Shown: positions 134-16,199, counted from the first letter of the stretch. The stretch is 64,000 nt of DNA from a virus (IMGVR_UViG_3300021134_000001:2824-66823); one strand, 5' to 3'. Translations and numbers: made by a program. The notes: generated from the letters alone by a model not told the origin.

Positions 134-460
134 ATGAAAAACCAATTAACTGTAACTATTCAAAACGACAAATTCGTATTAACTGAAACTAAAATGGTTT
201 TAGAAACCAAAACAGTAGGTGAAACTGAAGATTTCAAAGAATTGAGCGAAATCGTAACTTCACTTGGCTATAAGAATGCTAAGTTTTCTGACGAAGCGAA
301 GATTTTCAAGGTTTCACTGATTAAGCGCATGAAAGCGCAAAACGACGTAAAACGTCAAGAACGTGAAGCTAAGAAAGCAGAACGTGTTGCCGCAGCGAAA
401 GCTCGCGTAGAAGCACGAATTGCCGCTCTTCAAGCTCGTCTTGGTAAGTTTGGCGAATAA
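134..460 (+). CDS. hypothetical early protein with basic coiled-coil C-terminus
   Basis: 108-aa ORF, AAAGGA RBS upstream. Confidence 0.75.
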   Translation: MKNQLTVTIQNDKFVLTETKMVLETKTVGETEDFKELSEIVTSLGYKNAKFSDEAKIFKVSLIKRMKAQNDVKRQEREAKKAERVAAAKARVEARIAALQARLGKFGE

Positions 461-463
461 TCA

Positions 464-515
464 GCATAACTGATGAGTCTTTAATAGACGAAACCGTAGT
501 GATACGGTCTTATGC
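464..515 (+). ncRNA. hammerhead ribozyme HH1 (type I), predicted cut after C509
   Basis: gcataa CTGATGA gtct-ttaat-agac GAAA ccgta-gtga-tacgg TC ttatgc; full core, three paired stems, GUC triplet. Confidence 0.95.
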
Positions 516-624
516 ACAAGTATAACATCGAGCCAGTGATCTGCAGAACGATGTAAAAGTAATCGAACTGATCCGTTTCGAGGACAACGTAAAAGTCCTC
601 TTTTATTCACAAAGGAGAAATCTT

Positions 625-1434
625 ATGAATGTAGTAAAAATGCCTCAATTAACGCGTGATGAGATTCTTGATGACTATTTAGTCGCTATGCAAGATATCG
701 AAGATCGTAGTATTATGGACCAATATGAATACGCTAAGTATCTCAAACGGGCGCATGATATGTTTGCTTTAGACGTTGGTAGACCTCGCAAAACAAATAT
801 TTCTAAAGAAATAATTAAATATGCCTCGTTTACTGAGTTCTGCAAAGCAGCTAATAAAAGTCAAGGCGCAGCCACAAACGCTGTTAAAGTGGTTGAAATG
901 CTTGGCATGGATGCAAATCTATCTCAAGTCAAATTAAGCTTTACTTCGTTAAGAGAATTAGCTTATCAATCTGATGAGATTAAAGAAGAGTTTCTTCCTA
1001 AAATCTTAGATGGTGAGAAAGTTAAAATTAAAGAAGTTCTGAAGAGTTTAACTAAACCTCAGCGTGAAATTGTTGCTGAAGCAGGCTATGAGCTTGATGA
1101 AGAAGAACGCACTGGAATGACAATTGAAGAAATTCAAGCTGATCATGAGCGTGCAGACGACTTTATTGCTAACGATTTACCACGCATTAAACAAGAAGCA
1201 AAAGATAATCGTAAAGCGACTTATCAAGAAGGTTTAGAAAAGTTAGACGATTATGTCGACGAAACTAAAGAAGTTCAAGAATGGTTATTCGCTATTATTA
1301 AGCAAATTCCATTGGATAAACAACCTGCAGTAAGCAAGAAAGCTCTGTATAGCACGTTCAATATATGCTATGATGGGGCATGCGCTGAAACAGACGTAGT
1401 AAATTTTATTGAAACAAACATTAACACTTATTAA
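625..1434 (+). CDS. hypothetical protein
   Basis: 269-aa ORF with AAAGGAG RBS. Confidence 0.75.
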   Translation: MNVVKMPQLTRDEILDDYLVAMQDIEDRSIMDQYEYAKYLKRAHDMFALDVGRPRKTNISKEIIKYASFTEFCKAANKSQGAATNAVKVVEMLGMDANLSQVKLSFTSLRELAYQSDEIKEEFLPKILDGEKVKIKEVLKSLTKPQREIVAEAGYELDEEERTGMTIEEIQADHERADDFIANDLPRIKQEAKDNRKATYQEGLEKLDDYVDETKEVQEWLFAIIKQIPLDKQPAVSKKALYSTFNICYDGACAETDVVNFIETNINTY

Positions 1435-1449
1435 GAAATAAACATTATT

Positions 1450-1878
1450 ATGAAAATCTCATCAACACAGATTAAGAAAATCGAAAAAGATTTAGCATCT
1501 AAATTTGACATCTCAACTGGTAACTTACGTAAGATTTTAACAGAAATCTACAACGTTACTGATCCTGACAAAGCAAAGAAAATCACATCACGTGCGATTC
1601 TTAAGAATCATCTTTGTGAAGTTAATCGTCCTCATAAGGAGAAGTATGATGACACAGGCGATGCTAAGTATTTAGCTAAGTGCTGGGGAATATTTCCATT
1701 AACTGGAACTGGTAACAAAGGTTCATACAAAGAAGAGCTAATGACATATTCAGAAGCAAAGCGTATTGGACAAAAGAAAGTAAACTTAAATGTGTTTACA
1801 GCACGACGTAAGACAAGTATTAGCAATATGACACGAGAAATCGATCGATCTATTGGATTACTTGATTACTTTGAATAA
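1450..1878 (+). CDS. hypothetical basic protein
   Basis: 142-aa ORF. Confidence 0.7.
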   Translation: MKISSTQIKKIEKDLASKFDISTGNLRKILTEIYNVTDPDKAKKITSRAILKNHLCEVNRPHKEKYDDTGDAKYLAKCWGIFPLTGTGNKGSYKEELMTYSEAKRIGQKKVNLNVFTARRKTSISNMTREIDRSIGLLDYFE

Positions 1879-1879
1879 C

Positions 1880-1928
1880 ATCTAACTGATGAGTCCGTAA
1901 GGACGAAACCACGAAAGTGGTCTTAGAT
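1880..1928 (+). ncRNA. hammerhead ribozyme HH2 (type I), cut after C1922
   Basis: atctaa CTGATGA gtcc-gtaa-ggac GAAA ccac-gaaa-gtgg TC ttagat. Confidence 0.96.
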
Positions 1929-1952
1929 TATTATTATTGAAAGGAAATTATT

Positions 1953-2465
1953 ATGAATAAGAAACTATATAACGGTTTTAACCGTGCAGGGATGGTAAGC
2001 GCCATCCATATGGAGTGTGATACCTCAAGCTTTACTTATAAGCTCAACGATGATGAACTCATCAAAGCGTTTAAAGAAATCTTCGCTGGCAATTCAAATA
2101 TGCTAGCCGTGGAGGACTTATAATGTTTGAAATGAAATACTTAATCATTATCATTGGACTTGTATATTTTAGTATCGGCGTGGATCAATATTTTAAAGGA
2201 TCCTTACCAAACTTAATCGTATACACTGGTTACGCATTTAGTAATATTGGTTTATTCTTATTAGCAAAGTGAAAAGGAAATGAATAAAGTGGAAATTCTC
2301 TGGTTTTTCGCCGCATGTGCGGTGTCTGTAATCTTGATTAGTGGGTATCTTATAAATATCTATAGATTGATAAAGATGAAAGAAGTAAATGGTCTTACAT
2401 TTACACGAGTATGCGGAATATTTATATTCCCTATTGGCGCTATTGTAGGATTTATATCTAACTGA
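1953..2465 (+). CDS. three small ORFs (1953-2123, 2123-2272, 2280-2465); the last two are hydrophobic, likely membrane proteins
   Basis: read by hand; RBS motifs and overlapping TAATG stop/start. Confidence 0.65.
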
Positions 2466-2504
2466 TGAGTCGGTAACGACGAAACCACGAAAGTGGTCTT
2501 AGAT
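2456..2504 (+). ncRNA. hammerhead ribozyme HH3 (type I), cut after C2498
   Basis: atctaa CTGATGA gtcg-gtaa-cgac GAAA ccac-gaaa-gtgg TC ttagat; compensatory C-G to G-C swap in stem II versus HH2. Confidence 0.96.
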
Positions 2505-2519
2505 TAAAAGGAAATTATT

Positions 2520-3181
2520 ATGAAAAACGATTTATTTACGATTGTCATTGACGATCAAACATACACTTCTGACGCATTCAGAGCCTTATGTAAATATCAC
2601 GATGTTGTGCTATCCATCTATTCTGATGGTATGCTTGACTCGTTAGTATCTCTATGGAATACAATTATGCCGATCTCAAAATCTGCTAAACTGCTATTCG
2701 ATGGAGAAGAGTCTAAAGGATTCAAGCGTAAGATCTCCTTCGCTTCGAATGACGACACCAATGCAGATGGTTGGTGTGCTGATCCACGCAACTCAAAAGG
2801 AAAATACTAATGGACTTCCATGACGATCCTTCCTTCTTTGAGATTCTCGTATGGACAGTGTTATTCGCTCTCCTTTTCGCTCTCTTGTATATGTGCATGA
2901 TGGTCACAGTTTACCATCTTTAATATAAAGGAAATATTATGACTGTAAAAGATACTATGATTTCTATGGCATTGACTCAACTTCATACATCACTTCACCG
3001 TATTTATGAGATATGGTTGGAAGTTGGTAATGGAGATATGAGCGTATTAGAAGCTCGTATGGACGAAGCACGTGATGAGTTTATGGCTCGCTCAAGTAAA
3101 TACCTGACTGAGCAAGAACAGACACGTTATTTCGTCAAAGCGTATGAAGATACGTTAATCGCTGTAATGAACGCAAGTTAA
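2520..3181 (+). CDS. small hypothetical early proteins (2520-2810, 2939-3181)
   Basis: ORFs each with AAAGGAAAT RBS. Confidence 0.7.
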
Positions 3182-3226
3182 ACTGATGAGTCCTCAATGG
3201 ACGAAACCGCTTCGGCGGTCTTTAAC
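3177..3226 (+). ncRNA. hammerhead ribozyme HH4 (type I), cut after C3220
   Basis: gttaaa CTGATGA gtcc-tcaat-ggac GAAA ccgc-ttcg-gcgg TC tttaac; UUCG tetraloop. Confidence 0.96.
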
Positions 3227-3248
3227 ATTTATTATAAAGGAAACTAAA

Positions 3249-3715
3249 ATGAGTAATACACCTAACATGTCTTATTGCATGTTTGAAAATACCGAAAGCG
3301 CACTTGAACAGTGTGTAGATGCTATGAGCGAAGCGTATGATGTAGAGTCGCTTGATATGAATGAGCATGAGCGTAGCGCGTTTTTGCGAATGAGAAATCT
3401 ATGTAAAGACTTCTTAGCATTTCATGACGAAATTTTAAACAACACAAAGGAAACATTATGAAAATGAAATATAAAGCAGCCTTTACGGCTTTGAAAAAAT
3501 TAGGATGTCCAGTATATGAGCACTCCGACGATAATGGCAACTTTAGCATTTCTGCTGAAGAGGCTACATCTTATCTATGGTGTGATTACTATGATGGATA
3601 CCGAATTCCCGATTGGGAGTTTGGTGTAAGTCCTAAGATTACAGAACTACTACGTTCTAAAGGTTTATTCGCAGAGTGGATGAACAGTGGGAGATTAGTT
3701 GTATATGAAATTTGA
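3249..3715 (+). CDS. two hypothetical proteins (3249-3461, 3458-3715)
   Basis: first start reassigned to ATG 3249 after AAAGGAAA RBS. Confidence 0.7.
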
Positions 3716-4310
3716 TTTATACGTAGCCACGCACGAGTTGCGTCCTGATTATTACTATGTTGGATGCCATAAACATTCAACTAGAGCGTACAACACAAGC
3801 GGTTGGCCTAGGAAACTATGGAAAGATAGTGGAATTCGCCCAACCATTAATGTTATCGCACAGATCGAAGTAGATGAAGATGATAATGTGAGTCCATATT
3901 TACTGGAAAGAGCGTTATTCGACTCGTTAAAGAACAGTGGCGTTAACTTGGATCAGCATCGTCCAAACGTTGGCAATCCATGGGTAACAAAATCTAATAC
4001 TATTGCTCGCGATCGTCTAACTAAAGGCGAACACTTCTTTACAAACAAAGAGGAGCGCTCAAAACATACAGATGCGTACCGAAATGGCGCTAAACTTGGC
4101 GCTAAAAATCAGCCACACTCTGTTCGAGTTGCACAAGGAAAGCGCGCAGGAAAAATCGCCAAAGAGTCGGGTCAACTGCGAAGTATTGCACCGCTTGGTG
4201 GCAAGAACGCCGCAAGACCTCAGCTCTGTTTAGAATGTCATCGCGTCTCACAGGCCGCTAAATGGTGGCATTATAAAAACTGCGAACATTTAATAAAAGT
4301 AGACATATAA
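3699..4310 (+). CDS. putative GIY-YIG-like homing endonuclease with Gly/Lys-rich DNA-binding repeats and C-terminal Cys/His finger
   Basis: LYVA...YYYVG near N-terminus, ESGQLRSIAPLGGK motif, CLEC...H...C tail. Confidence 0.5.
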   Translation: MYMKFDLYVATHELRPDYYYVGCHKHSTRAYNTSGWPRKLWKDSGIRPTINVIAQIEVDEDDNVSPYLLERALFDSLKNSGVNLDQHRPNVGNPWVTKSNTIARDRLTKGEHFFTNKEERSKHTDAYRNGAKLGAKNQPHSVRVAQGKRAGKIAKESGQLRSIAPLGGKNAARPQLCLECHRVSQAAKWWHYKNCEHLIKVDI

Positions 4311-4319
4311 AGGAATACT

Positions 4320-4736
4320 ATGACTGAACGATTTATTGTATTAAACCAAATCCGTACTCCTGATGGTACGATCTTACGCTCCATTAATCGACATGATTAC
4401 CGCACTTACATCGATAAGAATGGTAAGGAATATATGGTTGATGGTGGCACTGACTATCTTCGTCGTAACGTCCATGAAGACGCTCCATACGATGAGTTGT
4501 CTGTTTATTCTGACGATTCTTTCGATGTAATCAGGAGAAGTTTGCATTGGGGCACCTACGGTCCCAAAGGTGACCAAGCGAAGCGTTACGTTCCAATGGC
4601 TGAAATGTCAGACGATCACATTCGTGCGATCTTAGACACGCAGCCACAGGTGCAAGGCATTCTTCGCCAATGGTTTAAAGAAGAATTGAGATGCCGTGAA
4701 TGCGGTCTGTATGAATATGTAAAGGATACATTATGA
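4320..4736 (+). CDS. conserved phage hypothetical protein
   Basis: S..RHDY...VDGG.DYLRR motif typical of phage proteins. Confidence 0.7.
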   Translation: MTERFIVLNQIRTPDGTILRSINRHDYRTYIDKNGKEYMVDGGTDYLRRNVHEDAPYDELSVYSDDSFDVIRRSLHWGTYGPKGDQAKRYVPMAEMSDDHIRAILDTQPQVQGILRQWFKEELRCRECGLYEYVKDTL

Positions 4737-4960
4737 ACGTAAAAGATTTTGAAGTATTAAACCGCCGCTATGCGATCGACATTAATCGCTTTCGTGATGG
4801 ACAAGGATTGACAGTTGATCTATTCAACGCTCTTTTTGACTACTACTGCCAAGGCAATGAAATGCCTTATGGAGTGGCGAAGGCGAGAACAGGCGATCCA
4901 TATGAATGGATAGACTCTCACTTTGGAGATTTCTTAAAAGATTTTGACAACTCACCGTAA
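4733..4960 (+). CDS. hypothetical protein
   Basis: 75-aa ORF, MPYG.AKAR.GDPY motif. Confidence 0.7.
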   Translation: MNVKDFEVLNRRYAIDINRFRDGQGLTVDLFNALFDYYCQGNEMPYGVAKARTGDPYEWIDSHFGDFLKDFDNSP

Positions 4961-5030
4961 CTGATGAGCCGTGCATTCGGCGAAACTACTGTTGTGCAAA
5001 TCAATAACTTGCACGACAGTAGTCTTACGG
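4955..5030 (+). ncRNA. hammerhead ribozyme HH5 (type I, long stem III), cut after C5024
   Basis: ccgtaa CTGATGA gccg-tgcatt-cggc GAAA ctactgttgtgcaa...ttgcacgacagtag TC ttacgg. Confidence 0.95.
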
Positions 5031-5142
5031 CCACCGTTGGAGCCGCCATTACGGTAAACAACGACCTTGTATCAGTTGACTCCCTTTGTTGACGAAATAC
5101 GAGCGCTTTTGACAGGTTGAGCGGTAATCAATCTGTCCTGTA
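5025..5142 (+). ncRNA. putative 118-nt small RNA released by HH5 and HH6
   Basis: non-coding interval between two predicted cleavage sites; folds into three hairpins. Confidence 0.55.
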
Positions 5143-5188
5143 CATGGATGTGTGTCCATGCTGATGAGTTCTAAAGAACGAAACAGAC
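5135..5188 (+). ncRNA. hammerhead ribozyme HH6 (type III), cut after A5142 (GUA triplet)
   Basis: ctgT A catgga-tgtgtg-tccatg CTGATGA gttc-taaa-gaac GAAA cag; stems I and II closed, stem III open. Confidence 0.9.
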
Positions 5189-5207
5189 TTATTATAAAGG
5201 AAATAAA

Positions 5208-7498
5208 ATGGAATATACGAAACTTGAGGAACTGCAAGGCATTTTCTCTGATTTTCACAAAGATTACTACGGATTTAGACCACGCTTTGCTAGCGCTGAA
5301 GAGTGGAATAGCAAAGAATGGTTGCAATCGCAAATTGATAGCATTCATGATGCGATAAACTGTAGAGCTAAAACACCGCAAGGTAGAGCAGCACTACTCG
5401 CCGAAGGGTGGGTAATTAACGATGATATTATAAAGGAATAAATATTATGAAAGTATTAAACAATCCACAGGTGTATATGGAACCTGGCACTTACTACATT
5501 GGTGATTTATGCTACGTATTACAAGATTCATGGGATGAATTCTGTAAAATCACTATTAGTGGTGAGCAATGTCTTAGCGGCGGATTTAGGTTTGCTGATG
5601 GACGCGAATTCGTTTCATTTACCACTATCTATGGTGATGGCACTTATTATGACAAAGATGGTTTTCAATATCCAGTTGATGCAGGCTTAATTGGTTGCAT
5701 TAGAGTCCAAGATATGGACAATGTAGATATCGATGAAGCGTCTCACGATGGAAGAGTGCATGTATTTACTAAACCATTTATATGCGAAAAGGTTGATGGT
5801 GTCCTTTACTTTGGTAAAGTGGCCATCGATCTCGATCCAAGTGATTATAACGATGATGAAGAGGAGTATGACGATGAGTAAATTGTTAGAACAACTCGAA
5901 GAAGAGTTAGGACTTCCTGCATGGAAGATTTTAGAAATGCAAAGAGCAGAGATGGCTGATCCATCCGCTATGCGCATGAATTTTCTAAATGGTACGCTAT
6001 ACGCTACACATTACGCGTATAGTGATATCAATCCGTATGAAGTATTACGTGTTGTATCAGATAATTGCTTAGAAGTTCGCGCAATGCGACACGAAAACGA
6101 TCCAAATGACATGCCAACGTTTGTGCCAGGCGGCTTTAGCGTCATCTGCACTCACTTCGGCAGCCGTGTAATCACAGTCGATCCTAAAGGTAAAGTGTTT
6201 AAGATTCGCCGTACAAAGCGTAATCCTGAACGTTGGACATACAAAGGTATGCGCTTTGCATTAGACAAAGAGCCACGCGCTTACTACGATCACAACTTTT
6301 AATAAAAGGAATACTATGAAAATGAAACATGAAAGGCATGCTCAAAAGATGGCTGATGCCATGTATCTTAATTTTATGGAGAATTCCTTAGATTATGTTC
6401 GAGATTCGACAGCAACTAAGGATGGCTTCGACGATTTAGATGAGTATCTTAAAGTAGAAAACTATGCGATAACATTATTCGCAATTCAATTATTAAAGGA
6501 AATACATGATTATAAATAAACAAAGAACGGCCTCATGGGTCGCTACGCTTCCTACGCTCACCTCTGAAGAGGATAGGCTCGCTCTTGCAGCCATCAAGTC
6601 CACTGTAAAGTCGATCAACGACAACAATGCACGTGATGAGAAATGGCGCAAGCGTTTCGATAAACACTGTAATGAAGTTGGCTATCCTCGCTATCGTGTC
6701 ACCATTCGTGCTCGTGGGCCAGTCAATGGTTACAAGTACGGCTATGGTGGCTATTTGAAACTCGCTGGTGGTAGTCGTTTTGACATCTACATCCACGTGA
6801 GAGGGTAACATGCCTAAATTCAAAATCCCAAAGAAATACCAAAAGTATATCGATGAAGATTCGATTGACGTTTATCACGGTCTCGATAGTTCGACGTATT
6901 TTGTATGGTTACGCTATGGATATAGTTACGACTATGAAAATAGTGGTAGCCATAATCAAGGATACGACTCACTTAAAGAGGCGTTAGCTGGTCTTGAAGA
7001 CGTTTATCTCTGCAACTGCGCTGATTGCGCTAAAGAGCCGCGTGGCACTCCAGTAAAGGACCTAATGAATGCCTAAATTTGTCGTTTATGAAACTAAAGA
7101 GAATGGTAAGGATTATGTCCTTGCCACTGTCGAAGGTATGGCAGCTGCTATGAAAGAGCTGAAGCGCCGTAAGAAGTTGGTGAAAGAAACCTCTGTTGTC
7201 GGTATGCAAGACAAAGAGATTTACCTATTTATTAAAAAACATCAAGAAAAGGAAGCTAAGAAAAATGGCAACTAAACCAAACACAGTAAAGAAGCAAAAG
7301 AACGGTAACATTACTCGTAATGGTAAACCAAAAATTAAATCGTTAAGTGTTGCACAGATTCAAAAGCTAATCGATCAAGGAGCGCAAAAGAACGCGACAT
7401 CAAAGATCGGTAAGAAGATGGCGAAACTTAAGAATGCACTATGTGCTCGATTTAAGCCATTGATTGATAGCGATCCTATTGGTTTCCAACAAAGTTAA
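5208..7498 (+). CDS. cluster of small hypothetical early proteins (5208-5441, 5447-5881, ~5874-6302, 6316-6519, 6506-6808, 6810-7076, 7069-7275, ~7265-7498)
   Basis: tightly packed ORFs with AAGGA-type RBS. Confidence 0.7.
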
Positions 7499-7573
7499 AC
7501 TGATGAGTCCTTAATGGACGAAACAAGCGGTCACATATCCGACCAGGCGATAACGCTGCCGCTTGTCTTTAAC
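7494..7573 (+). ncRNA. hammerhead ribozyme HH7 (type I, insert in stem III), cut after C7567
   Basis: gttaaa CTGATGA gtcc-ttaat-ggac GAAA caagcgg...ccgcttg TC tttaac. Confidence 0.94.
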
Positions 7574-7621
7574 ACACGTATGGTATTCGCTATGCGTGAC
7601 TATATTATGAAAAGGAGATTT

Positions 7622-8458: not shown

Positions 8459-8622
8459 AATACGTTATAGCGTTTGTAATTACCTTATTACTGAGCGCAT
8501 GTGGCACGACCACGTATACTTCTACACCATATTATGGATATTCATCATATCCACACTATTATTGCAGTTACTGTAGAGTATCACGTCCATACGTACGACA
8601 GTATTATCGTAGGTATTATTAA
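8455..8622 (+). CDS. small Tyr-rich lipoprotein
   Basis: MKYVIAFVITLLLSAC lipobox; 55 aa, read by hand. Confidence 0.6.
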   Translation: MKYVIAFVITLLLSACGTTTYTSTPYYGYSSYPHYYCSYCRVSRPYVRQYYRRYY

Positions 8623-8685
8623 TGGACCGCTTGGCAGACGCCAAGTGGCCAACTAGCCCATAACTAATTGATTATAAAGGATAAA

Positions 8686-9420: not shown

Positions 9421-9428
9421 GGAGTAAT

Positions 9429-9800
9429 ATGGCCGGACCTCAAGGTAAAGCTATGGCCGTAGGCTCGCATTGCGCTCGAAAGAACGTAAGCGTAGACGGC
9501 TTCACTAGGTATCCTGTGAAATCGCACAATCTCGAGCCATCAGGCGTTTACTTGAATAAAGTGAAAGCATGGATGCATGAGCATATGCCATGGGAAACGA
9601 AACAATGGGAAAAGAAGTTTGGTGTCAAAGAATGGTGGCAGATGGTCAAGATCGAAATGACTGACTACTGCTTTGGATTCGAGGGCAATCAGGCGACTTA
9701 TCTCTATATTAAATATAAAGGAGAGTTAGATGAATCTCAAGCGAAACCTCGTGGCGAAGTACGCGGCAAGATTCGCTACAAGCAAGCCGATTCTGAGTAA
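9429..9800 (+). CDS. hypothetical protein
   Basis: 123-aa ORF, AAGGAG RBS. Confidence 0.65.
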   Translation: MAGPQGKAMAVGSHCARKNVSVDGFTRYPVKSHNLEPSGVYLNKVKAWMHEHMPWETKQWEKKFGVKEWWQMVKIEMTDYCFGFEGNQATYLYIKYKGELDESQAKPRGEVRGKIRYKQADSE

Positions 9801-10013
9801 GAAGCAGAAGTTAAAGAGTCGTAAAGTAAAGCATAGGAAAAGATATGAATCCATTTGAAATGCTTGACTTAATTAGACGTACCCATCCTGATGGATATTG
9901 GCGCGCAAGGATTGCAACATATCTCGCAACGCATCGTTATACGATGAAGGAAGGTGCGGCTAATGAGTGGCGCAATGTTCCACCAGATGGATTACCTATA
10001 CAAGGAGAAAATC

Positions 10014-10496
10014 ATTAACATATTCTATCTTGACGCGGATCCTGTAAAGGCCGCAGAAATGCACTGTGATAAACATGTGTGTAAGATGATCATCGAAACG
10101 GCTCAAATGATGAGCTCGGTCCAAGCTCGTTATGGACTCGAAAATCCTCCATACAAACCAACGCATCAAAAGCATCCATCAACGCTGTGGTCAGGCGATA
10201 ACACGCTTCACTATGCATGGCTAAGAGCATTAGGATTGAGCTTATGCCGTGAGTATACGAAGCGCTATAATAAAACCCATAAGACTGAAGCGATTATTAA
10301 AGATTTATGGTCAGCGCCGCTTGGCATGCCTACAGGAGAGTGGAGCAATCCACCTCAATGTATGCCTGACGAGTGTAAGATGGATGACACCATCGATGCT
10401 TATCGTAAGTATTATGTTATTGCTAAAGCGAAGTTTGCCAAATGGGCACACGCAACTAAGGCACCGCAATGGTGGCCTAAGCTACAAACAATGTAA
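10014..10496 (+). CDS. pyrimidine-dimer DNA glycosylase (DenV-related) family protein
   Basis: NIFYLD.DP..AA..HCDKHV.KM..E.AQ, YKPTH..HP, PPQCMP, AYR.YY; probable ATT start. Confidence 0.75.
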   Translation: MNIFYLDADPVKAAEMHCDKHVCKMIIETAQMMSSVQARYGLENPPYKPTHQKHPSTLWSGDNTLHYAWLRALGLSLCREYTKRYNKTHKTEAIIKDLWSAPLGMPTGEWSNPPQCMPDECKMDDTIDAYRKYYVIAKAKFAKWAHATKAPQWWPKLQTM

Positions 10497-10539
10497 CTGA
10501 TGAGTCCTAATGGACGAAACGCCGTGAGGCGTCTTACAT
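10491..10539 (+). ncRNA. hammerhead ribozyme HH8 (type I), cut after C10533
   Basis: atgtaa CTGATGA gtcc-taat-ggac GAAA cgcc-gtga-ggcg TC ttacat. Confidence 0.96.
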
Positions 10540-10557
10540 AATTATTAAAGGAGGAAT

Positions 10558-12117
10558 ATGGCACGTAATATAAAGAAAGAAATAGGCGAGTTATATACAG
10601 CATTAAACTCCGTTCGCGCTGAAAAGCGATCTTTAGCGGCTCGAATGGATAACGCTCGACGTGCTAGCACTCTTGGGATCGACTTAGGTGACAACGAGTT
10701 TTACTATCGCGTCAGTATGGATTTCCGTGGTCGTTTGTATTATCGCGGCTCACATATGAATCCTCAAATGGGTGATGACATTAAGGTAATGTTAACCTTA
10801 GGCCAGAAGAAGCCGCTCACCGAGATGGGATTTAAATGGTTGTTATGGGGAATCGCTTCAGCTGCAGGCCAGAGTAAGAAGAGTTTCTCTGAGCGTGTCG
10901 AATGGACGCTTGAAAATTGGGCTAATATTCGCGAAGCCGTTCGCAATCCTATTGAATCTCAATGGTTTGCTGACGTCGTAATGGGTGAAGATGAGCCTGC
11001 ACTGTTTCTACAACGCGCTACTGTTGCAGTAGAGGCTGTAGAGTCTGGCGCTCCATTTGATTATCCAACAGATATCACTATTGCAATGGACGCAACATGC
11101 TCAGGTCTTCAGATTCTCTCAGCGGTCGCTCGTGACCTCGAAGGTGGACGCTTAGTCAACCTCGTCGACACTGGCGAGCGCCAAGACGTGTATCTGACGG
11201 TGCTGAATATGGTCAAGCAATCTTATGCAAACGATAACGATGTATTTGCTATCCACATGCGTGAGAATAGCGAAACCTTTGGTCGTCGATTTACAAAGAA
11301 AGTGGTAATGACATTGCCGTATTCTGCGACGTTTAGAAGTGCAGTTGGTTATATTCTAGACGAATTGCAAGGCAATATGGAGAAAAACAATCCTCCATTC
11401 CCATTGCCTGATTCTGTTGAAGATCGCTTAGCACTCTATAACGCCATCTTAGCCCGCAAAGGTAAGGATTTAGTTATAGATTCCACTTTAGCGAAGTTAG
11501 ACGATTTTAGTTTATATCGCATGCTTGCTGATTACCTTGGCCGTCTAGTAATGGACGCCTGTGATAAGTGTTTACCTGCGGCGCTAAATCTCTTACACTT
11601 TTTCCAATCGTGTCCTAAACATTTAGATGGACACGCACATTGGATGACGCCTGATGGATTTAGAGTAGACCAAGTTTATGGCTCTCGCGAACGTGAAAAG
11701 ATTCAATTTCGTTTACAAATGGCAGACCAAGAGACTGGCGAACTAATCAGTCAAAAGATTCAGCGTCGCTATGAATGGCTAGACCCAAACGAAAAGGATG
11801 GACGTAAAGCAGCTAACGGAATGCCACCTAATTGGGTGCACTCATTAGACGCAACGCTAGTGCGAATGGTAGTAAGAACATGCGATTTTCCAATCGTCTG
11901 TATTCACGATTCATTTGCATCACATCCGGCAGATTGTGAAGACTTATCTAAAGCGTTGCGTGAACAGTTTACACTTCTTGTTCAGCAAATGCCATTAGAG
12001 ACTTTAATTACACAATTGAACGAGCAAGTTGGCGATGAGATTTTCTCAACAACCAATTTGACTGTAAACACTTGGGATCCAGAGCAAGCGAAAACTTCAC
12101 CCTTTCTATTTTGTTAG
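10558..12117 (+). CDS. T7-family RNA polymerase, catalytic (C-terminal) subunit
   Basis: DFRGRLY, motif A DATCSGLQ, motif B R...K..VMT..Y, PNWVHSLDA, motif C IHDSF, F-rich C-terminus. Confidence 0.93.
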   Translation: MARNIKKEIGELYTALNSVRAEKRSLAARMDNARRASTLGIDLGDNEFYYRVSMDFRGRLYYRGSHMNPQMGDDIKVMLTLGQKKPLTEMGFKWLLWGIASAAGQSKKSFSERVEWTLENWANIREAVRNPIESQWFADVVMGEDEPALFLQRATVAVEAVESGAPFDYPTDITIAMDATCSGLQILSAVARDLEGGRLVNLVDTGERQDVYLTVLNMVKQSYANDNDVFAIHMRENSETFGRRFTKKVVMTLPYSATFRSAVGYILDELQGNMEKNNPPFPLPDSVEDRLALYNAILARKGKDLVIDSTLAKLDDFSLYRMLADYLGRLVMDACDKCLPAALNLLHFFQSCPKHLDGHAHWMTPDGFRVDQVYGSREREKIQFRLQMADQETGELISQKIQRRYEWLDPNEKDGRKAANGMPPNWVHSLDATLVRMVVRTCDFPIVCIHDSFASHPADCEDLSKALREQFTLLVQQMPLETLITQLNEQVGDEIFSTTNLTVNTWDPEQAKTSPFLFC

Positions 12118-12123
12118 GAATAT

Positions 12124-13029
12124 ATGAGTATAAAACAAGAACAAATCCAAAGAGAGTTAGAAGCGATTCGTTTAGTAAAACAGAGTAGACTTGAAAAGAC
12201 TGAACTTATGAACAGTCTTCAAGAGACCTTCTCTGAAGAAATTCAAACGCTAAGCGAATCTCTTACAAAGTGGTACGCAACGATGCAAGATCCTAAAGAT
12301 GATAATGCGTTACTTTATCAAAAATTAGTGTTTAGCATTGAAACGCCAGTTATGGCTGAACTTATCATTCGCGCTATCTTTGAAGGACTTATGATAACAA
12401 CGCATCAATCCGTGAATTATCAGTTTATCGTAGATCGCCTGCTTATTCAAAGGTATTTACGTAGCACGCTTCCTCCTGAAGAACGTGTTATCTTACCTAA
12501 GTATAAGTTCTTAGTGATCGATAGATTGGTTACACGATCAGTGCGATTACTAACAACGCTATTCTCCGAATCAATGGTTCGTGAGCGTAACGCTAAAGGT
12601 GAGGTTGAGACGTTTTACACCGTCCACCTTACTGAGTTAGGTCGTGAGCGATTAGCAAAGGTTCCACTAAATCAAGTAATCTCTGACGTTCCAATGTATT
12701 GTAAACCGCAGCCATGGACTTCAGTGTTTGATGGTGGATATCTAACAGCGGACGCGCAACGAGGAAATCCTTTGATTCAATCGAAGCGTCTTTCTTATCG
12801 CGAACTGCGTGCAATCGATAAAGAATTGCAAGCAAATCCACAGATCTTTGAGGCAGTAAATAAGATGCAAAATGTATCTTTTAGAATAGACCAAAAATCC
12901 AAAGATTATCAGAACACTATTGCGCAAGTGCGAAAACGTAAGATTAAGGAATGTGATCGCAAGATTACAGCCTACGTCGAGCAGATCGCGAAGCTCAAGA
13001 GTGACCTGGCGCAAGTGGATCCTATATAG
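12124..13029 (+). CDS. T7-family RNA polymerase, N-terminal-domain subunit
   Basis: PMYCKPQPWTSVFDGGYL and IFEAVNKMQNVSFRID resemble T7 RNAP PCVVPPKPWTGITGGGY and VYKAINIAQNTAWKIN. Confidence 0.82.
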   Translation: MSIKQEQIQRELEAIRLVKQSRLEKTELMNSLQETFSEEIQTLSESLTKWYATMQDPKDDNALLYQKLVFSIETPVMAELIIRAIFEGLMITTHQSVNYQFIVDRLLIQRYLRSTLPPEERVILPKYKFLVIDRLVTRSVRLLTTLFSESMVRERNAKGEVETFYTVHLTELGRERLAKVPLNQVISDVPMYCKPQPWTSVFDGGYLTADAQRGNPLIQSKRLSYRELRAIDKELQANPQIFEAVNKMQNVSFRIDQKSKDYQNTIAQVRKRKIKECDRKITAYVEQIAKLKSDLAQVDPI

Positions 13030-13033
13030 AGAG
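13009..13033 (+). promoter_or_regulatory. putative phage RNAP promoter, copy 1
   Basis: GCGCAAGTGGATCCTATATAGAGAG, exact repeat at 25167; TATA then purine-rich start like T7/SP6 promoters; upstream of replication genes. Confidence 0.75.
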
Positions 13034-13073
13034 CTCCCGTAGCACTCTTTTTTCAATAACATGGAGAGCCTAG

Positions 13074-13607
13074 ATGGCAAAACTAAAAACCACAGTAACA
13101 CCAAAAGGTGTATTGTCATGGCCTTACATTGGTAAGCCAGATACACGATACAATCCTGAAGGTGTGTATAAGACCAGCTTGATTGTACCAGCCGAGACCG
13201 CTGAACCGCTGATGACTATGTGTAAAGACGCTTTTATTACCGAGTACGGCGCAACAAAGATGGCTAAGGCAAATATGCCTTTCTCACCTGAGTTGGACGA
13301 TCAAGGCCAAGAAACTGGCAATATCGTATTTAAATTTAAGTCAAAGCGTGCACCTAAGTTATACGATGCCAAAGGCAAAGTAATTAACAAAGTGCTACAA
13401 GTATCGTCTGGCACGGTTGCGAAAGTTGCTACTGCAATTAATCCATACATGACTGGTATCAACGTGGGTGTTTCACTATATCTCAATGACGTTCAGATTA
13501 TCGAATTAGTTGAATATGGTGCAGGCGCTAAGTTTGAAGCTGAAGATGGATACGAAGCAGAAGACAACGGATCGACAGACGATGGCAAAGACTCGCCTGA
13601 CTTCTAA
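13074..13607 (+). CDS. single-stranded DNA-binding protein (T7 gp2.5-like)
   Basis: TPKG, KPD, GVSLYLNDVQIIELVE, acidic tail ending in F. Confidence 0.9.
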   Translation: MAKLKTTVTPKGVLSWPYIGKPDTRYNPEGVYKTSLIVPAETAEPLMTMCKDAFITEYGATKMAKANMPFSPELDDQGQETGNIVFKFKSKRAPKLYDAKGKVINKVLQVSSGTVAKVATAINPYMTGINVGVSLYLNDVQIIELVEYGAGAKFEAEDGYEAEDNGSTDDGKDSPDF

Positions 13608-13986
13608 ACAACTTGCTATTAAATACGCATATCGTAGTGGATTAGAAGAGAAGATTGCCGATCAGCTGACGAACTTAAACGTCTCCTTTACTTTCGAAGA
13701 AACTGTATTGTATTATACTAAGCCAGAGCGTAAGCATCGCTATACGCCTGACTTTGTGTTATCCAATGGCATTATCATCGAAACTAAAGGTCGTTTCTTA
13801 ACGGCTGATCGACAGAAACATCTCCTTGTCAAAGAACAGAATCCCACTATGGATATTCGTTTCGTGTTCTCAAACTCGAACGCTCGTATCTCTAAATCAT
13901 CTGCTACAACGTATGCAGATTGGTGTAGAAAACACGGCTTTCAGTTTGCGGATAAACTAATACCTGTTGAATGGATAAAGGAATAA
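13582..13986 (+). CDS. endonuclease I / Holliday junction resolvase (T7 gp3-like)
   Basis: YRSGLE, YTPDF, IIETKG, DIRFVFSNS. Confidence 0.95.
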   Translation: MAKTRLTSKQLAIKYAYRSGLEEKIADQLTNLNVSFTFEETVLYYTKPERKHRYTPDFVLSNGIIIETKGRFLTADRQKHLLVKEQNPTMDIRFVFSNSNARISKSSATTYADWCRKHGFQFADKLIPVEWIKE

Positions 13987-13989
13987 GTA

Positions 13990-15609
13990 ATGGAAGCGGA
14001 AGATAGTAAATTTCTACGACACGAACAATGCGAATCTTGCGGTTCGTCGGATGCAAAGGCTATTTATAGTAATGGCTCTACCTTCTGTTTTTCATGTCAA
14101 GTATCTACGCGTAAAACGTCAGATAACAAAGTGCAAACTATGAACGCCACGACTCCACTTTTGAATCCGTATTTCGATGGACAAGTGGAACCATTGGCCG
14201 CTAGAGGTATTGCTGAAGCGACGTGTCAGAAGTATGGCGTTCGCAAAGGCCAACTCAACGGCAAAGTGGTCCATCTCTATCCTTACTACAAGGATGGACA
14301 AGTTGTCGCAGCAAAGACGCGCGATGCCGCCAAGAATTTCAATATTATTGGTGATGGCAAAGATTTGTCGTTCTTTGGTCAAAATCTATTTGGTAAGCCA
14401 AGCGATAAGATTTCGCTTGTGGTTACTGAAGGTGAAATTGACGCGTTATCAATGGCTCAGATTATGGGATTAAAATTCCCAGTCGTATCTGTGCCAAGCG
14501 GCGCTCAATCTGCCGTTAAAGCCTTTCGCAATAACATTGAATGGCTTGATGGTTGGAAAGACGTCGTTATCATGTTTGACAGCGATGCGCCAGGTCGAGA
14601 CGCTGCTCAGAAGTGTGCAGAAGTCCTTAGACCAGGCAAAGCACGTATTGCATCATTGCCGTTGAAAGACGCTAATGATATGTTGATGGCTAAGCGTTCT
14701 GAAGAATTGATGAAATGCTTCTGGGATGCAAAGTCATTTAGACCTGACGGTATTATTGCAGGTGTAGATTTGTGGGAGTTGATTTCTCATGAAGATGAAA
14801 CGCTTTCAGTTGAGTATCCATTCGTGGCGCTCAATGAAAAGACGCATGGTTGTCGACGCGGTGAGTTGGTTACAGTTACGGCTGGATCAGGCATCGGTAA
14901 ATCGGCGTTTATGCGTGAAATTGCCCATCACTTACTAAACCTCGGTGAAACAGTTGGCATGGTGATGTTGGAAGAAAATCCACGTCGAACAGCGTTAGGC
15001 CTTATGGGCTTAGCGATTGATAAACCATTACATCTGTCACGTGAAGGCGTAAGTCAAGAGCAATTACGTACAGCATTTGACCAAACACTTGGTACTGGTA
15101 GAGTATTCTTATTCGATCACTTCGGTTCTTCTGAAGTTGAGCATTTAATGAATAAACTCCGTTACATGGTAAAAGGTTTAGGCTGTAATTGGGTTATTCT
15201 TGATCACCTATCCATTCTAGTATCTGGATTGGAAGGCGTAGATGAGCGAAGACTTATCGACCAAGCAATGACAATGTTGCGTACATTCGTAGAAGAAACC
15301 GGTTGTGGTATGTTATTAGTGTCGCATTTAAAACGACCTGATGGCAAAGGCCATGAAGAAGGTGCCCATACGTCTCTATCGCAACTTCGTGGTAGCCATG
15401 CTATCGCTCAACTTTCTGATATTGTTATCGGATTGGAGCGTAATCAGCAAGGTGATAATCCTAATGAAACTCAAATACGCGTTCTAAAGAATCGATTTAG
15501 TGGTGAAACTGGCGAAGCCGGTAAGCTCTACTTTAATCGTGACACTGGACGTTTAACTGAGACATTTATACAAGTAACTTCTAATAACAACTCTTTTGGA
15601 GAATTTTAA
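13990..15609 (+). CDS. primase-helicase (T7 gp4-like)
   Basis: Zn ribbon CxxC...CxxC, TOPRIM EGEID and FDSD, Walker A AGSGIGKS, LRGS, KNRF. Confidence 0.96.
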   Translation: MEAEDSKFLRHEQCESCGSSDAKAIYSNGSTFCFSCQVSTRKTSDNKVQTMNATTPLLNPYFDGQVEPLAARGIAEATCQKYGVRKGQLNGKVVHLYPYYKDGQVVAAKTRDAAKNFNIIGDGKDLSFFGQNLFGKPSDKISLVVTEGEIDALSMAQIMGLKFPVVSVPSGAQSAVKAFRNNIEWLDGWKDVVIMFDSDAPGRDAAQKCAEVLRPGKARIASLPLKDANDMLMAKRSEELMKCFWDAKSFRPDGIIAGVDLWELISHEDETLSVEYPFVALNEKTHGCRRGELVTVTAGSGIGKSAFMREIAHHLLNLGETVGMVMLEENPRRTALGLMGLAIDKPLHLSREGVSQEQLRTAFDQTLGTGRVFLFDHFGSSEVEHLMNKLRYMVKGLGCNWVILDHLSILVSGLEGVDERRLIDQAMTMLRTFVEETGCGMLLVSHLKRPDGKGHEEGAHTSLSQLRGSHAIAQLSDIVIGLERNQQGDNPNETQIRVLKNRFSGETGEAGKLYFNRDTGRLTETFIQVTSNNNSFGEF

Positions 15610-15610
15610 G

Positions 15611-15856
15611 ATGAGCACAAACAGCTACTTCGTAATCCGCGCAATCAAAGAAAAAGGCGTAGCAACGTCTGCATTTATTGCAAAGAAGTATAAAGTTAAA
15701 AACGTATCAGCCACTGTATCTGCCTTGCGCAAACGTGGTCATGAGATTGTAACACTTGCCGAAGGTTATGCATTGCCTTTCGGTACGCGCGATGAAGCAG
15801 CCAAACTAAGTAAGACTGCGCGCAACAAGATTGCTAAGCAATTTGGCTTAGTATAA
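15611..15856 (+). CDS. small winged-HTH-like DNA-binding protein
   Basis: IA..Y...NVSATVSALRKRGH pattern. Confidence 0.55.
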   Translation: MSTNSYFVIRAIKEKGVATSAFIAKKYKVKNVSATVSALRKRGHEIVTLAEGYALPFGTRDEAAKLSKTARNKIAKQFGLV

Positions 15857-15924
15857 AGTATCATAAATGAATCACTAAGCTACATAATGTATCATATACG
15901 ATACAATTTGGCTTAGTATAAAGT
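15839..15924. repeat. 21-bp direct repeat CAATTTGGCTTAGTATAAAGT (15839-15859, 15904-15924)
   Basis: exact repeat in AT-rich DNA. Confidence 0.85.
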
Positions 15925-15974
15925 GTAGTTACTTCTTATAAACATTTCTTTGTATCTAACTAGGAGTATTAAAC

Positions 15975-16136
15975 ATGAATGCTTTTATCGTTACTGCGGT
16001 AGTAAGTCTTTTCTCAATTAACGCAATGGCTTTAGAGCCTGCGATCGTTAAAGCTGATAAAAAGAAAGAAGTCAAGGCTGTAAAGCAAGCGACACCTGCT
16101 AATGCTGCACCTGCTGCGCCTGCTGCAAAGAAATAA
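15975..16136 (+). CDS. small secreted Ala/Lys/Pro-rich protein
   Basis: AGGAG RBS, signal peptide ending AMA, 53 aa; not in ORF track. Confidence 0.7.
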   Translation: MNAFIVTAVVSLFSINAMALEPAIVKADKKKEVKAVKQATPANAAPAAPAAKK

Positions 16137-16139
16137 TCA

Positions 16140-16199
16140 GTCTGACTGATGAGCCTTAAATAGGCGAAACCGCCACTCGTGAGAGTCGCGGTCTCAGAC
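16140..16199 (+). ncRNA. hammerhead ribozyme HH9 (type I), cut after C16193
   Basis: gtctga CTGATGA gcct-taaat-aggc GAAA ccgc-c-actc-gtga-gagt-c-gcgg TC tcagac. Confidence 0.95.

Follow-up and report, generated by a model that had tools for sequence, protein, structure and literature searches.

In phage T7, the early and middle mRNAs are processed by intercistronic RNase III cuts, after which the upstream message ends in a 3′ hairpin. A different arrangement is found in the RiboJ insulators, engineered elements derived from a satellite-RNA hammerhead that strip away the upstream RNA context and give the gene that follows a defined 5′ end. In RiboJ it is the downstream RNA that keeps the body of the ribozyme. 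Clustered prophage hammerheads were proposed by Perreault et al. (2011; PMC3088659) to process long phage transcripts into gene-length mRNAs, and three tandem arrangements cleaved in vitro. In the fusarivirus PtFV1 (PMC13725137) a type I hammerhead fills nearly the whole of a 66-nt inter-ORF space. It cuts 7 nt ahead of the start codon that follows, and the 5′ end so produced was seen in vivo by RACE. A 2019 review (PMC6765202) still calls the role of bacterial and phage hammerheads unresolved.

The locus described here comes from an uncultivated phage with T7-like replication genes; it lies between early and middle genes, in a 64,000-nt stretch of the phage DNA (IMGVR_UViG_3300021134_000001:2824-66823; hereafter the window). 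The neighbourhood is like that of T7, with ligase, RNA polymerase, a gp2.5-like SSB, primase-helicase and DNA polymerase but, unlike T7, the cut would be made by the RNA itself, with no host enzyme required. A T7-type RNase III site, an irregular double-stranded hairpin, was considered and ruled out, the elements of the window being hammerheads; the likeness is one of function only. As in the prophage clusters of PMC3088659, hammerheads of mixed types lie beside single genes or small groups of genes that share a transcript. Compared with these clusters, the window contributes nine further sites, set among T7-like early/middle genes, together with a regularity, the embedding of the upstream stop codon, that appears to go beyond them; ‘stop codon’ occurs 0 times in the main text of that paper. 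PtFV1 differs from the window in being a eukaryotic RNA virus, whose authors tie the ribozyme to cap-independent translation initiation, and the available text of PMC13725137 does not mention any overlap between the hammerhead and the preceding stop. The disposition of RiboJ resembles that of HH6, the single type III hammerhead of the window, and is unlike that of the eight type I sites.

Hammerheads of the window

A parser, complemented by inspection, gave eight canonical type I hammerheads and one of type III, all on the + strand and together spanning 464–16199 (Table 1). All eight type I copies have three helices round the core, with stems II and III closed by loops and stem I open-ended, and in each the parser found the CUGAUGA core, G10.1–C11.1, GAAA, the A15.1–U16.1 pair and C17; stem I is exactly 6 bp long throughout. 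Across these copies, 96 of 96 cells in stems I–III are paired, 7 of the 12 stem pairs show compensatory changes, and the covariation score was reached by 0 of 500 shuffles. The gathering cut-off of RF00163 (34 bits) is passed by two of the eight, HH8 (36.1) and HH2 (34.5); HH3 (30.5), HH4 (29.3), HH9 (28), HH7 (15.5) and HH1 (14.8 bits) lie under it and HH5 is unreported. Long inserts in stem III, for which the 45-position model has no counterpart, are present in the low scorers HH5, HH7 and HH9. In HH6 the core is the same, and stem III is the open helix, stems I and II being closed; it scores 35.3 bits with RF00008 (cut-off 48.5), and its orthologue in L123 has C17 where HH6 has A5142. The body of HH6 is predicted to stay at the mRNA 5′ end of the gene at 5208–5441. 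A type I plus type III pairing like that of HH5 and HH6 is also present in L123 and L109.

Table 1. Hammerheads and adjoining features of the window, with the distance from the upstream stop to stem I (negative where the stop reaches into the ribozyme).
Feature	Position	Strand	Stem I 5′ strand	Predicted cut	Upstream stop	Stop to stem I (nt)	Remarks
HH1, type I	464–515	+	464–469	after C509	458–460	+3	stem I 464–469/510–515; core 470–476
HH2, type I	1880–1928	+	1880–1885	after C1922	1876–1878	+1	30-nt leader to ATG 1953
HH3, type I	2456–2504	+	2456–2461	after C2498	2463–2465	−10	near-duplicate of HH2
HH4, type I	3177–3226	+	3177–3182	after C3220	3179–3181	−5	
HH5, type I	4955–5030	+	4955–4960	after C5024	4958–4960	−6	15-bp stem III
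RNA between HH5 and HH6 cuts	5025–5142	+					118 nt, without ribozyme body; 3′ hairpin abuts HH6
HH6, type III	5138–5186	+		between 5142 and 5143			stem III 5138–5141/5183–5186; N17 is A5142
HH6, inner parts		+					stem I hairpin 5143–5160; core 5161–5167; then stem II hairpin
HH7, type I	7494–7573	+	7494–7499	after C7567	7496–7498	−5	next gene DNA ligase, 7622–8458
HH8, type I	10491–10539	+	10491–10496	after C10533	10494–10496	−6	
Gene 3′ of HH8	10558–12117						RNA polymerase, catalytic part
HH9, type I	16140–16199	+	16140–16145	after C16193	16134–16136	+3	next gene DNA polymerase, 16269–18068

Stop codons at the type I sites

An earlier note on this DNA had claimed that every type I hammerhead sits on or next to the upstream stop codon, and all eight stop coordinates hold. 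The stop lies inside stem I in HH4, HH5, HH7 and HH8, and precedes it in HH1, HH2 and HH9; the ORF upstream of HH3 (2280–2465), which matches phrog_6006 through to the end of the profile, takes as its stop the first UGA within the core CUGAUGA. HH1 and HH9 have second in-frame stops at the base of stem I (UAA 467–469 and UGA 16143–16145, respectively). The distance from stop to stem II is 3–16 nt, and the 5′ strand of stem I lies wholly within 9 nt of the stop in eight of eight cases. It should be noted that the stops of HH2 and HH9 are assigned from ORF length and ribosome-binding site only, because the ORFs concerned (1450–1878 and 15975–16136, the latter of 53 aa) gave no family or locus match. 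HH6 has no adjoining upstream ORF.

Stop positions in phage hammerheads at large

Two independent samples of IMG/VR contigs were drawn with different stem II sequences, copies of the window being excluded from the counts, and the upstream ORF was assigned heuristically by taking the longest open frame, with 50 codons as the minimum. Spacing is given as d, the distance from stop to core; for type I, stop to stem II is d+7. Among the matches listed, the stop lies in stem I or in the core UGA in 102 of 226 type I hammerheads (51/114 and 51/112 by sample) and at most 9 nt 5′ of stem I in a further 57 of 226, so that the whole interval from core UGA to 9 nt before stem I holds the stop in 77/114 and 82/112. 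After clustering on the upstream 60 nt, a stop in the core or stem I is found in 43 of 101 ORF-bearing clusters, again among the matches listed. The intergenic location is in itself trivial; it is the closeness of the stop that is reproduced in the two outside samples. Stop overlap is not special to this phage, and appears to be a mode of packing common to phage hammerheads.

The favoured stop positions are those where conserved nucleotides of the hammerhead can spell a stop. Peaks occur, among the matches listed, at d=−4 (17 and 20 cases in samples 1 and 2), d=0 (19 and 10), d=5 (13 and 14) and d=6 (9 and 11), the d=5 stops of sample 1 being mostly UAG that use A-7 and G-6. Position −7 is A in 80/106 and 94/104 of the hammerheads among the matches listed. 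A UAA adjoining the core is a family trait, whether it is the stop or not: it stands there without being the stop in 32/80 and 20/87 of the matches listed. The three possible frames of the stop are unequally represented (40:35:15 and 29:46:22 among the matches listed; chi-square p=0.003 and 0.009 for samples 1 and 2, kinship ignored). Closeness of the stop and frame bias suit ribosome-based models equally well.

Packing and sequence opportunity as the probable cause

The ordinary junctions of the window are packed as tightly as those with hammerheads, which bears out genome compaction, named in the earlier note as the simpler alternative. The median gap from stop to start is 3 nt, with gaps of at most 15 nt at 19 of 22 ordinary junctions; the Shine-Dalgarno sequence of the next gene begins at a median of 10.5 nt inside the upstream gene, and at 15 of 20 such junctions it starts inside or over that gene. 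With phage genes packed in this manner, the next functional element would normally begin within the last part of the gene before it, and the nucleotides conserved in the family happen to spell stops: A(−7), then G-N-N-U-A-A, then CUGAUGA. Stops would thus come to lie in or beside stem I because tight gene packing is combined with stop-spelling conserved nucleotides; overlap would therefore be mainly a matter of packing and of 3′-UTR design, and not a translation gate. Packing plus sequence opportunity is the most likely source of the stop overlap. We put at about two in three the probability of the reading as a whole, namely that the nine hammerheads act constitutively as self-contained sites of processing between genes, and that stop overlap reflects mainly packing and opportunity and not gating.

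It is possible, as a tentative historical account compatible with packing, that hammerheads spread and recombine as leader-gene-hammerhead cassettes, whose own stop-spelling nucleotides end reading frames where they land; stops within the ribozyme would then be an outcome of insertion or recombination. HH2 and HH3 are 91% identical over 58 nt (repeat D1), leaders and ribosome-binding sites are repeated too (D1, D13), and stem I sequences are shared within genomes (six GTTCAA in L100; two ATCTAA and two GTTAAA in the window). At the position of HH9, L009 has two hammerheads and an extra ORF, and HH9 joins the body of the first L009 hammerhead to the 3′ flank of the second. Upstream genes keep their N-terminal parts and differ at the C-terminus beside the hammerhead, the gene upstream of HH7 being 90% identical over residues 1–60 of 77. 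Random insertion, however, predicts equal frames, one third of which should read far into the ribozyme, and the upstream frame reads through the core in 17 of 226 cases among the matches listed; frames that reach so far being so few, later selection or trimming would be needed.

Is cleavage coupled to translation?

The earlier note had proposed that cleavage could be delayed or gated by translation of the upstream gene, and that the spacing in relatives be checked. The exact distance from stop to core is not conserved: at the HH4 junction d is 1 in L123 and −4 in L109 (1, 1, −4 as a series for the HH4-upstream gene), at HH5 it is 0 in both, at HH7 −4 in both (series 1, −4, −4), and at the HH8 (RNAP) junction it is 0 in L009 and L123 and 9 in L010 and L011. 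Moreover, some family members stand after tRNA genes, in L095, L099 and L069, and some follow hairpins. Taken with the frames that read through the core and with HH6, which has no upstream ORF, these observations leave the proposal without support. Gating is physically possible, because in the window no stop is farther from stem I than roughly the footprint of a ribosome. No published family of ribosome-controlled self-cleaving ribozymes was found in the literature searched.

In one form of the idea, a ribosome terminating at a stop in or beside stem I, or translating the last codons ahead of it, would keep the stem I 5′ strand, with some of the core, inside the mRNA channel, so that folding and cutting would occur only between ribosomes or when upstream translation falls, the timing having been selected accordingly. 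When the stop occupies the A site, a ribosome reaches about 9 nt (the toeprint distance), and all eight 5′ strands of stem I in the window lie within this distance. The closeness is general (159/226 among the matches listed), and reading frames that take their stop from the hammerhead are in excess among the matches listed; ordinary ribosome-binding sites, however, show equal overlap, and type III sites place a hairpin between stop and ribozyme. Directly after the stops of HH1 and HH9 there is an AUCAG that can pair with the core CUGAU, stem I having predicted probabilities of 0.02 (HH1) and 0.09 (HH9) with the native flank against 0.32 and 0.28 with shuffled flanks. A compensating UUCAG/CUGAA version of this hairpin occurs in L062, but the hairpin is rare (14/252 against 7.4 ± 2.7 in shuffles, among the matches listed). 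Hammerhead cleavage is irreversible and translation termination is brief compared with usual hammerhead rates, so occlusion should delay cutting only modestly. With orthologous junctions differing in spacing, relatives following tRNAs or hairpins, HH6 lacking an adjoining ORF, and some frames crossing the core, we consider occlusion very unlikely.

The opposite sign of effect has also to be weighed: with the stop at stem I, upstream RNA covered by ribosomes would be kept away from the ribozyme, and cleavage promoted. Naked upstream RNA can mispair with stem I because this has only six weak base pairs. Over 246 hammerheads among the matches listed, the mean predicted probability of stem I falls from 0.82 when the ribozyme is folded by itself to 0.37 when 40 nt of native upstream flank are included, and is 0.28 when the flank is shuffled; native flanks are predicted to be only slightly better than random (56% exceed shuffles, Wilcoxon p=3e-5, among the matches listed). 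Five of the eight MFE folds in the window lose, on addition of a 30-nt upstream flank, a stem I that is present in the ribozyme alone, and in HH4 and HH7 stem I is absent both with and without that flank. Stem I is thus weak in the secondary-structure model, and upstream ribosomes could therefore matter. The model, however, leaves out tertiary contacts and co-transcriptional order; tertiary contacts are likely, because A is conserved at −7 and +7 and the stem is fixed at 6 bp. Hammerheads after tRNAs or hairpins fold without upstream ribosomes, and the available text of PMC3088659 describes efficient self-cleavage of clustered prophage hammerheads when ~2-kb fragments were simply transcribed in vitro. 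Assisted folding accordingly seems to us highly improbable.

More broadly, the upstream ribosome might be a direct regulator of ribozyme folding, making a ribosome-sensing switch free of ligand and protein; we think this unlikely. The ribosome could cover stem I and the core, or it could clear away competing structure in the upstream RNA; in HH1 and HH9, it could also melt the AUCAG/CUGAU hairpin that hides the core. If this were true, each intercistronic cut would report whether the upstream gene is being translated.

The retained 3′ structure

A separate stable hairpin abuts stem III on the cleavage side in 40/48 and 13/22 phage type III hammerheads among the matches listed, and in 31/40 and 12/13 of these it is flush with stem III, with no spacer. 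The median distance from stop to hairpin is 7 and 6 nt in samples 1 and 2 (typically 6–8, among the matches listed), and the spacings of type I and type III are similar, not identical (medians 11.5 and 7 nt, Mann-Whitney p=0.017, among the matches listed). Among the matches listed, type III stops are mostly clear of the hairpin whereas type I stops often overlap stem I, and simple maximal packing is therefore not the whole story.

The earlier note had also held that stems II and III stay on the upstream RNA as a protective 3′ structure. Their retention follows from the anatomy, only C17 lying beyond stem III. The importance of a retained structure is strengthened by the type III hairpins, with the difference that there the ribozyme leaves with the downstream RNA. 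We infer that the retained stems protect the 3′ end.

Proposed intercistronic processing and its implications

On the preferred reading of constitutive processing, the host-independent hammerheads would cut a long early/middle transcript into about ten pieces. Each type I cut would leave the ribozyme with the upstream message, whose end would consist of the stop, a few nucleotides, stem II, stem III and an overhanging C with a 2′,3′-cyclic phosphate; the downstream message would start with a 5′-hydroxyl, 21–115 nt ahead of its start codon. The sequences themselves show the anatomy, the generality of the layout, the variable spacing and the control architectures; cleavage in vivo and the absence of gating are what we infer.

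The window is a compact natural test bed, with nine ribozymes of two topologies in 16 kb amongst recognisable T7-like early/middle genes, and the survey turns translation coupling into a cheaply testable question with clear alternative outcomes. The data suggest a design rule: a stop, then a stable hairpin flush with the new 3′ end, then a short leader with a ribosome-binding site, the stop codon often being spelled by conserved nucleotides of the ribozyme. Should this rule hold, it would explain the choice of type I as the topology that directly follows genes, it allows gene callers to place gene ends beside hammerheads, and it provides ready-made parts for self-processing operons.

Hammerheads of the window and the phage that carries them

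A structure parser applied to both strands of the whole window identifies eight type I hammerheads and one of type III (HH6), every one of them a + strand element located within 464-16199; it demands perfect contiguous pairs, and hammerheads with bulged stems escape it. In every type I copy the parser recovers a complete catalytic core, C17 and six stem I pairs, no more and no fewer. Across the eight copies the stem cells are paired in 96 of 96 cases, with compensatory changes in 7 of the 12 pairs. Only two type I copies exceed the Rfam cut-off; five score lower, and HH5, with its 39-nt stem III, is missed by Rfam. A scan of the + strand of the record's 2.9 kb upstream of the window gave no CUGANGA core. 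HH3 nearly duplicates HH2, with 91% identity across 58 nt (1873-1971 against 2449-2538), and the leader, ribosome-binding site and start codon that follow them are repeated too (81% over 36 nt), as if a hammerhead and its leader had been copied as one unit. A 10-bp hairpin (7575-7598) begins two nucleotides past the 3' strand of HH7 stem I, so that cleavage would give the ligase message a stem-loop at its 5' end.

The source record comprises 66,823 bases and is 59% complete according to CheckV; the genes in the initial 29 kb of the window lie on the + strand. Its gene content, the identity of only ~33% between part of its RNA polymerase and the polymerases of phiKMV-like phages in a protein comparison, and the absence of any DNA-level match to GenBank phages (megablast, window 1-16500) together indicate an uncultivated phage carrying a T7-like early/middle gene set. 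The RNA polymerase (10558-13029) is encoded in two pieces whose order is apparently permuted, since the catalytic part (519 aa) comes first; the RPOL_N-like segment in the second protein (301 aa) scores 28.1 bits, under the cut-off of 30.1. Transcription units were defined neither by a sigma-70 promoter scan of 1-18500, which gave 47 matches against 47.1 in shuffles, nor by an intrinsic terminator scan of the same stretch, which gave 16 against 12.9, counted as equal. A 29-nt repeat with 97% identity, whose 3' end is TATAGAGAG, occurs at 13005-13033, directly before the single-strand DNA-binding protein gene, and at 25163-25191. This repeat may be a promoter that the phage RNA polymerase itself recognises; if it is one, HH1-HH8 fall upstream of its first copy. 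A tRNA gene (53.4 bits, 29113-29184) lies close to the switch from + to - strand genes.

Features of the window, with examples from other IMG/VR loci (named)
Feature	Position	Strand	Basis
ATP-dependent DNA ligase	7622-8458	+	PHROG and Pfam scans
Single-subunit RNA polymerase, piece with PF00940	10558-12117	+	PHROG and Pfam scans
RNA polymerase, RPOL_N-like piece	12124-13029	+	PHROG and Pfam scans
gp2.5-like single-strand DNA-binding protein	13074-13607	+	PHROG and Pfam scans
Primase-helicase	13990-15609	+	PHROG and Pfam scans
Family A DNA polymerase	16269-18068	+	PHROG and Pfam scans
A-flanked stem I, flank positions	463/516, 1879/1929 and so on
Predicted segment	up to 509
Predicted segment	510-1922
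Predicted segment	1923-2498
Predicted segment	2499-3220
Predicted segment	3221-5024
Predicted segment, 118-nt RNA	5025-5142
Predicted segment	5143-7567
Predicted segment	7568-10533
Predicted segment	10534-16193
Predicted segment	16194 onward
Type III sites with abutting hairpin, examples	L128 6162, L027 3342, L057 1995

Position of the upstream stop codon

It had been observed in the earlier note that an upstream stop lies on or next to every type I hammerhead in the window, and all of its stop coordinates proved correct when rechecked. The stop lies within stem I in HH4, HH5, HH7 and HH8. HH3 has it at the core's first UGA, and the preceding ORF aligns to phrog_6006 through the last position of the profile. 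For HH1, HH2 and HH9 it lies 3, 1 and 3 nt 5' of stem I; in HH1 and HH9 the base of that stem holds a further stop in the same frame. No homologues were found for the ORFs preceding HH2 and HH9, and their stops are therefore less certain.

Two sets of hammerheads from other IMG/VR loci were compared with these. Sample 1 came from a scan for the core plus a stem II pattern (at least 120 stretches), all hammerheads in the fetched loci being parsed; sample 2 came from a second scan with another stem II sequence (at least 120 stretches), with predictions fixed before analysis. Upstream ORFs were assigned heuristically, with 50 open codons as the minimum length, and copies without one (13/127 and 7/119 among the matches listed) were excluded from the denominators. 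Among the matches listed, sample 1 holds 127 non-identical type I copies outside the window, 114 with such a frame, and sample 2 holds 119 new copies, 112 with an ORF, which reproduce the sample 1 result.

Stop position relative to type I hammerheads, among the matches listed
Stop position	Sample 1 (n=114)	Sample 2 (n=112)
Core UGA	17	20
Within stem I	34	31
<=2 nt 5' of stem I	13	20
3-9 nt 5' of stem I	13	11
10-29 nt 5' of stem I	7	5
>=30 nt 5' of stem I	24	14
Past core	6	11

Taken together, the stop falls within stem I or the core in 102/226 of the matches listed; counting also those up to 9 nt 5' of stem I, the total is 159/226. When sample 1 is clustered by the upstream 60 nt, 112 clusters contain no copy from the window, and among the matches listed the proportions stay the same. 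Stop overlap is not special to this phage; it is general among the sampled type I hammerheads. Fifteen of the 31 distant cases (at least 10 nt) listed in sample 1 have a shorter ORF of 20-56 aa ending at -14 to +9; these assignments are ambiguous and were kept outside the near-stop classes. tRNA genes precede three of these 31 listed cases, and strong hairpins precede several. Type I hammerheads at L069 8399, L095 3865 and L099 (reverse strand, 5092) lie within or just past tRNA gene arrays, one between tRNA-Ile and tRNA-Tyr and two ~80 nt past tRNA-Thr, without an upstream ORF.

Packing and the hammerhead consensus

Genome compaction was named at the outset as the simpler alternative to translation-coupled cleavage, and it is well supported as an explanation of the stop overlap, since the ordinary junctions of the window overlap just as the hammerheads do. 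The median stop-to-start gap over the 22 ordinary junctions is 3 nt, and their Shine-Dalgarno sequences start a median of 10.5 nt within the upstream gene (negative in 15/20); the type I hammerheads, HH1-HH5 and HH7-HH9 in order, start at +3, +1, -10, -5, -6, -5, -6 and +3 nt relative to the stop. Overlap between a functional element and the tail of the gene before it is the norm here.

The type I consensus in the sampled phage copies is also sharper than the Rfam model shows. Among the matches listed in samples 1 and 2, respectively, stem I has six pairs in 114/135 and 104/119, the base immediately 5' of it is A in 80/106 and 94/104, the base immediately 3' is A in 74/106 and 95/104, and the core-adjacent triplet is UAA in 50/106 and 34/104. 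With an A conserved on each side (75-90%), the six-pair stem I suggests that loop II takes part in a defined tertiary contact in this phage family. The core-adjacent UAA is present even where it is not the stop (32/80 and 20/87 of the matches listed). With d as the nucleotide count from the stop to C3 of the core, the favoured values among the matches listed are -4, 0, 5 and 6, exactly the positions at which conserved bases can supply a UGA, UAA, UAG or NNA-type stop. Frame counts in the listed matches are 40:35:15 in sample 1 (chi-square p=0.003) and 29:46:22 in sample 2 (p=0.009), neither test being corrected for relatedness, and the rarest frame is that for which the ribozyme provides no stop codon; the bias would be explained by the conserved hammerhead bases that spell stops at the favoured d. 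In L070 (reverse strand, core positions 2850 and 3544) stem I has UGGAG as its 3' strand, 5-10 nt ahead of the next start codon; a Shine-Dalgarno sequence would therefore be held in stem I until cleavage releases it.

Spread of hammerheads as cassettes is supported by the HH2/HH3 duplication and by an extra cassette in L009, a locus whose polymerase is 96% identical to that of the window; such spread probably contributed to the origin of the pattern. The HH9 region (15857-16269) corresponds to L009 5590-6210, where two hammerheads with an intervening ORF stand in place of HH9 alone; HH9 is the body of the first joined to the 3' flank of the second, a layout that points to gain or loss of a hammerhead-bounded cassette.

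Hairpins at the predicted new 3' ends

Type III hammerheads, whose ribozyme departs with the downstream RNA, provide a control. Among the matches listed there are 49 at the same loci in sample 1 and 26 in sample 2, and a stable hairpin precedes 40/48 and 13/22 of those listed with an upstream ORF. In the listed matches this hairpin is usually of -14 to -18 kcal/mol, often with the motif GUGUCUUCAAAGACAC; it adjoins stem III on that stem's 5' side, leaving no spacer in 31/40 and 12/13, and the median distance from stop to hairpin is 7 and 6 nt. At type I sites stem I is lost on cleavage, and the first remaining hairpin is therefore stem II, at a distance from the stop of d+7, which is 3-16 nt in the window and has a median of 11.5 nt among the sample 1 matches listed. 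For the matches listed, the two spacings are of the same order, although their distributions differ (Mann-Whitney p=0.017). Both types would thus leave the upstream message with a hairpin flush at its new 3' end; at type I sites that hairpin is the ribozyme's own stem III. This lends support to the idea, put forward in the earlier note, that stems II and III cap the 3' end, and it suggests that the position of the stop is fitted more to the mature message than to the uncut ribozyme.

Cuts by HH5 (type I) and HH6 (type III) are predicted to free a 118-nt RNA with no ribozyme body aboard, and a type I and type III pair around a short RNA is also found in L123 and L109. The RNA has a CCCUUU-loop hairpin and a 3' hairpin at the type III site, both kept in the diverged L109 copy. 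It is possibly a small RNA with precisely defined ends; that its CCCUUU loop could pair with phage AAAGG ribosome-binding sites is speculation.

A possible role for ribosomes

Under the model first proposed, a ribosome terminating on the upstream ORF would gate cleavage by occlusion. At all eight window stops a terminating ribosome would extend roughly far enough past the stop to cover the 5' strand of stem I, by the distance known from toeprinting work, and the AUCAG after the HH1 and HH9 stops is predicted to be able to pair with the core CUGAU and mask it. Spacing in relatives, a check that the earlier note proposed, was compared in L123 and L109 (many common junctions) and in L009-L011 (common polymerase). 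Before HH5, d is 0 in the window, L123 and L109 alike; before HH4 it is 1 in the window and L123 and -4 in L109; before HH7 it is 1 in the window and -4 in both relatives; and at the junction before the RNA polymerase it is 0 in the window, L009 and L123 and 9 in L010 and L011. Closeness of stop and core is therefore retained, whereas the exact spacing varies between orthologous junctions, and we regard occlusion as unlikely.

The opposite effect, in which upstream ribosomes help stem I to form, can also be envisaged, because naked upstream RNA is predicted to disturb this stem. A partition-function model of 246 hammerheads among the matches listed gives a mean stem I pairing probability of 0.82 for the ribozyme alone; adding 40 nt of upstream RNA lowers it to 0.37 if the sequence is native and to 0.28 if it is shuffled. 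Stem I is thus weak in this model, and native flanks have only a slight advantage over random ones. Such models, however, leave out tertiary contacts and co-transcriptional order, and the clustered prophage hammerheads described in PMC3088659 cut efficiently in plain in vitro transcription; assisted folding seems to us just as improbable as occlusion.

The AUCAG/CUGAU pairing of HH1 and HH9 forms an alternative hairpin of 5 bp with a 5-nt loop (459-474, -3.7 kcal/mol; 16135-16150, -4.6 kcal/mol), which in the model drops stem I formation under the shuffled-flank level; L062 carries a compensating UUCAG/CUGAA version. As a general trait it was rejected (at least 5 bp in 14/252 of the matches listed against 7.4 +/- 2.7 in shuffles), and it is a local curiosity of HH1 and HH9, rare overall.

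Hammerheads as probable processing sites

Intercistronic processing of T7 transcripts is carried out by RNase III; in this phage, in contrast, hammerheads are predicted to take over that role. We consider it probable, at roughly two chances in three, that the nine hammerheads are constitutive processing sites standing in for RNase III, and that the stop overlap results from packing together with a consensus that spells stops. Nine cuts would divide the operon transcript into ten segments, and packing and the stop-spelling consensus would between them produce the overlap.

Hammerhead clusters at phage genes are a known kind of element, to which the window adds a further case. Clusters flanking phage genes, with the idea of polycistronic RNA processing, were reported in 2011 (PMC3088659), their purpose was still called undefined in a 2019 review (PMC6765202), and in a fungal RNA virus a type I hammerhead occupies an entire intergenic UTR (PMC13725137). 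In the portions of the open literature at hand we found no account of stop codons lying within phage hammerheads; the supplementary alignments and figures of PMC3088659 might show them. The stop-embedding rule, the A-flanked, fixed six-pair stem I and the hairpin abutting type III hammerheads appear to be undescribed regularities. The stop overlap itself is real and general, and it yields a testable design rule.
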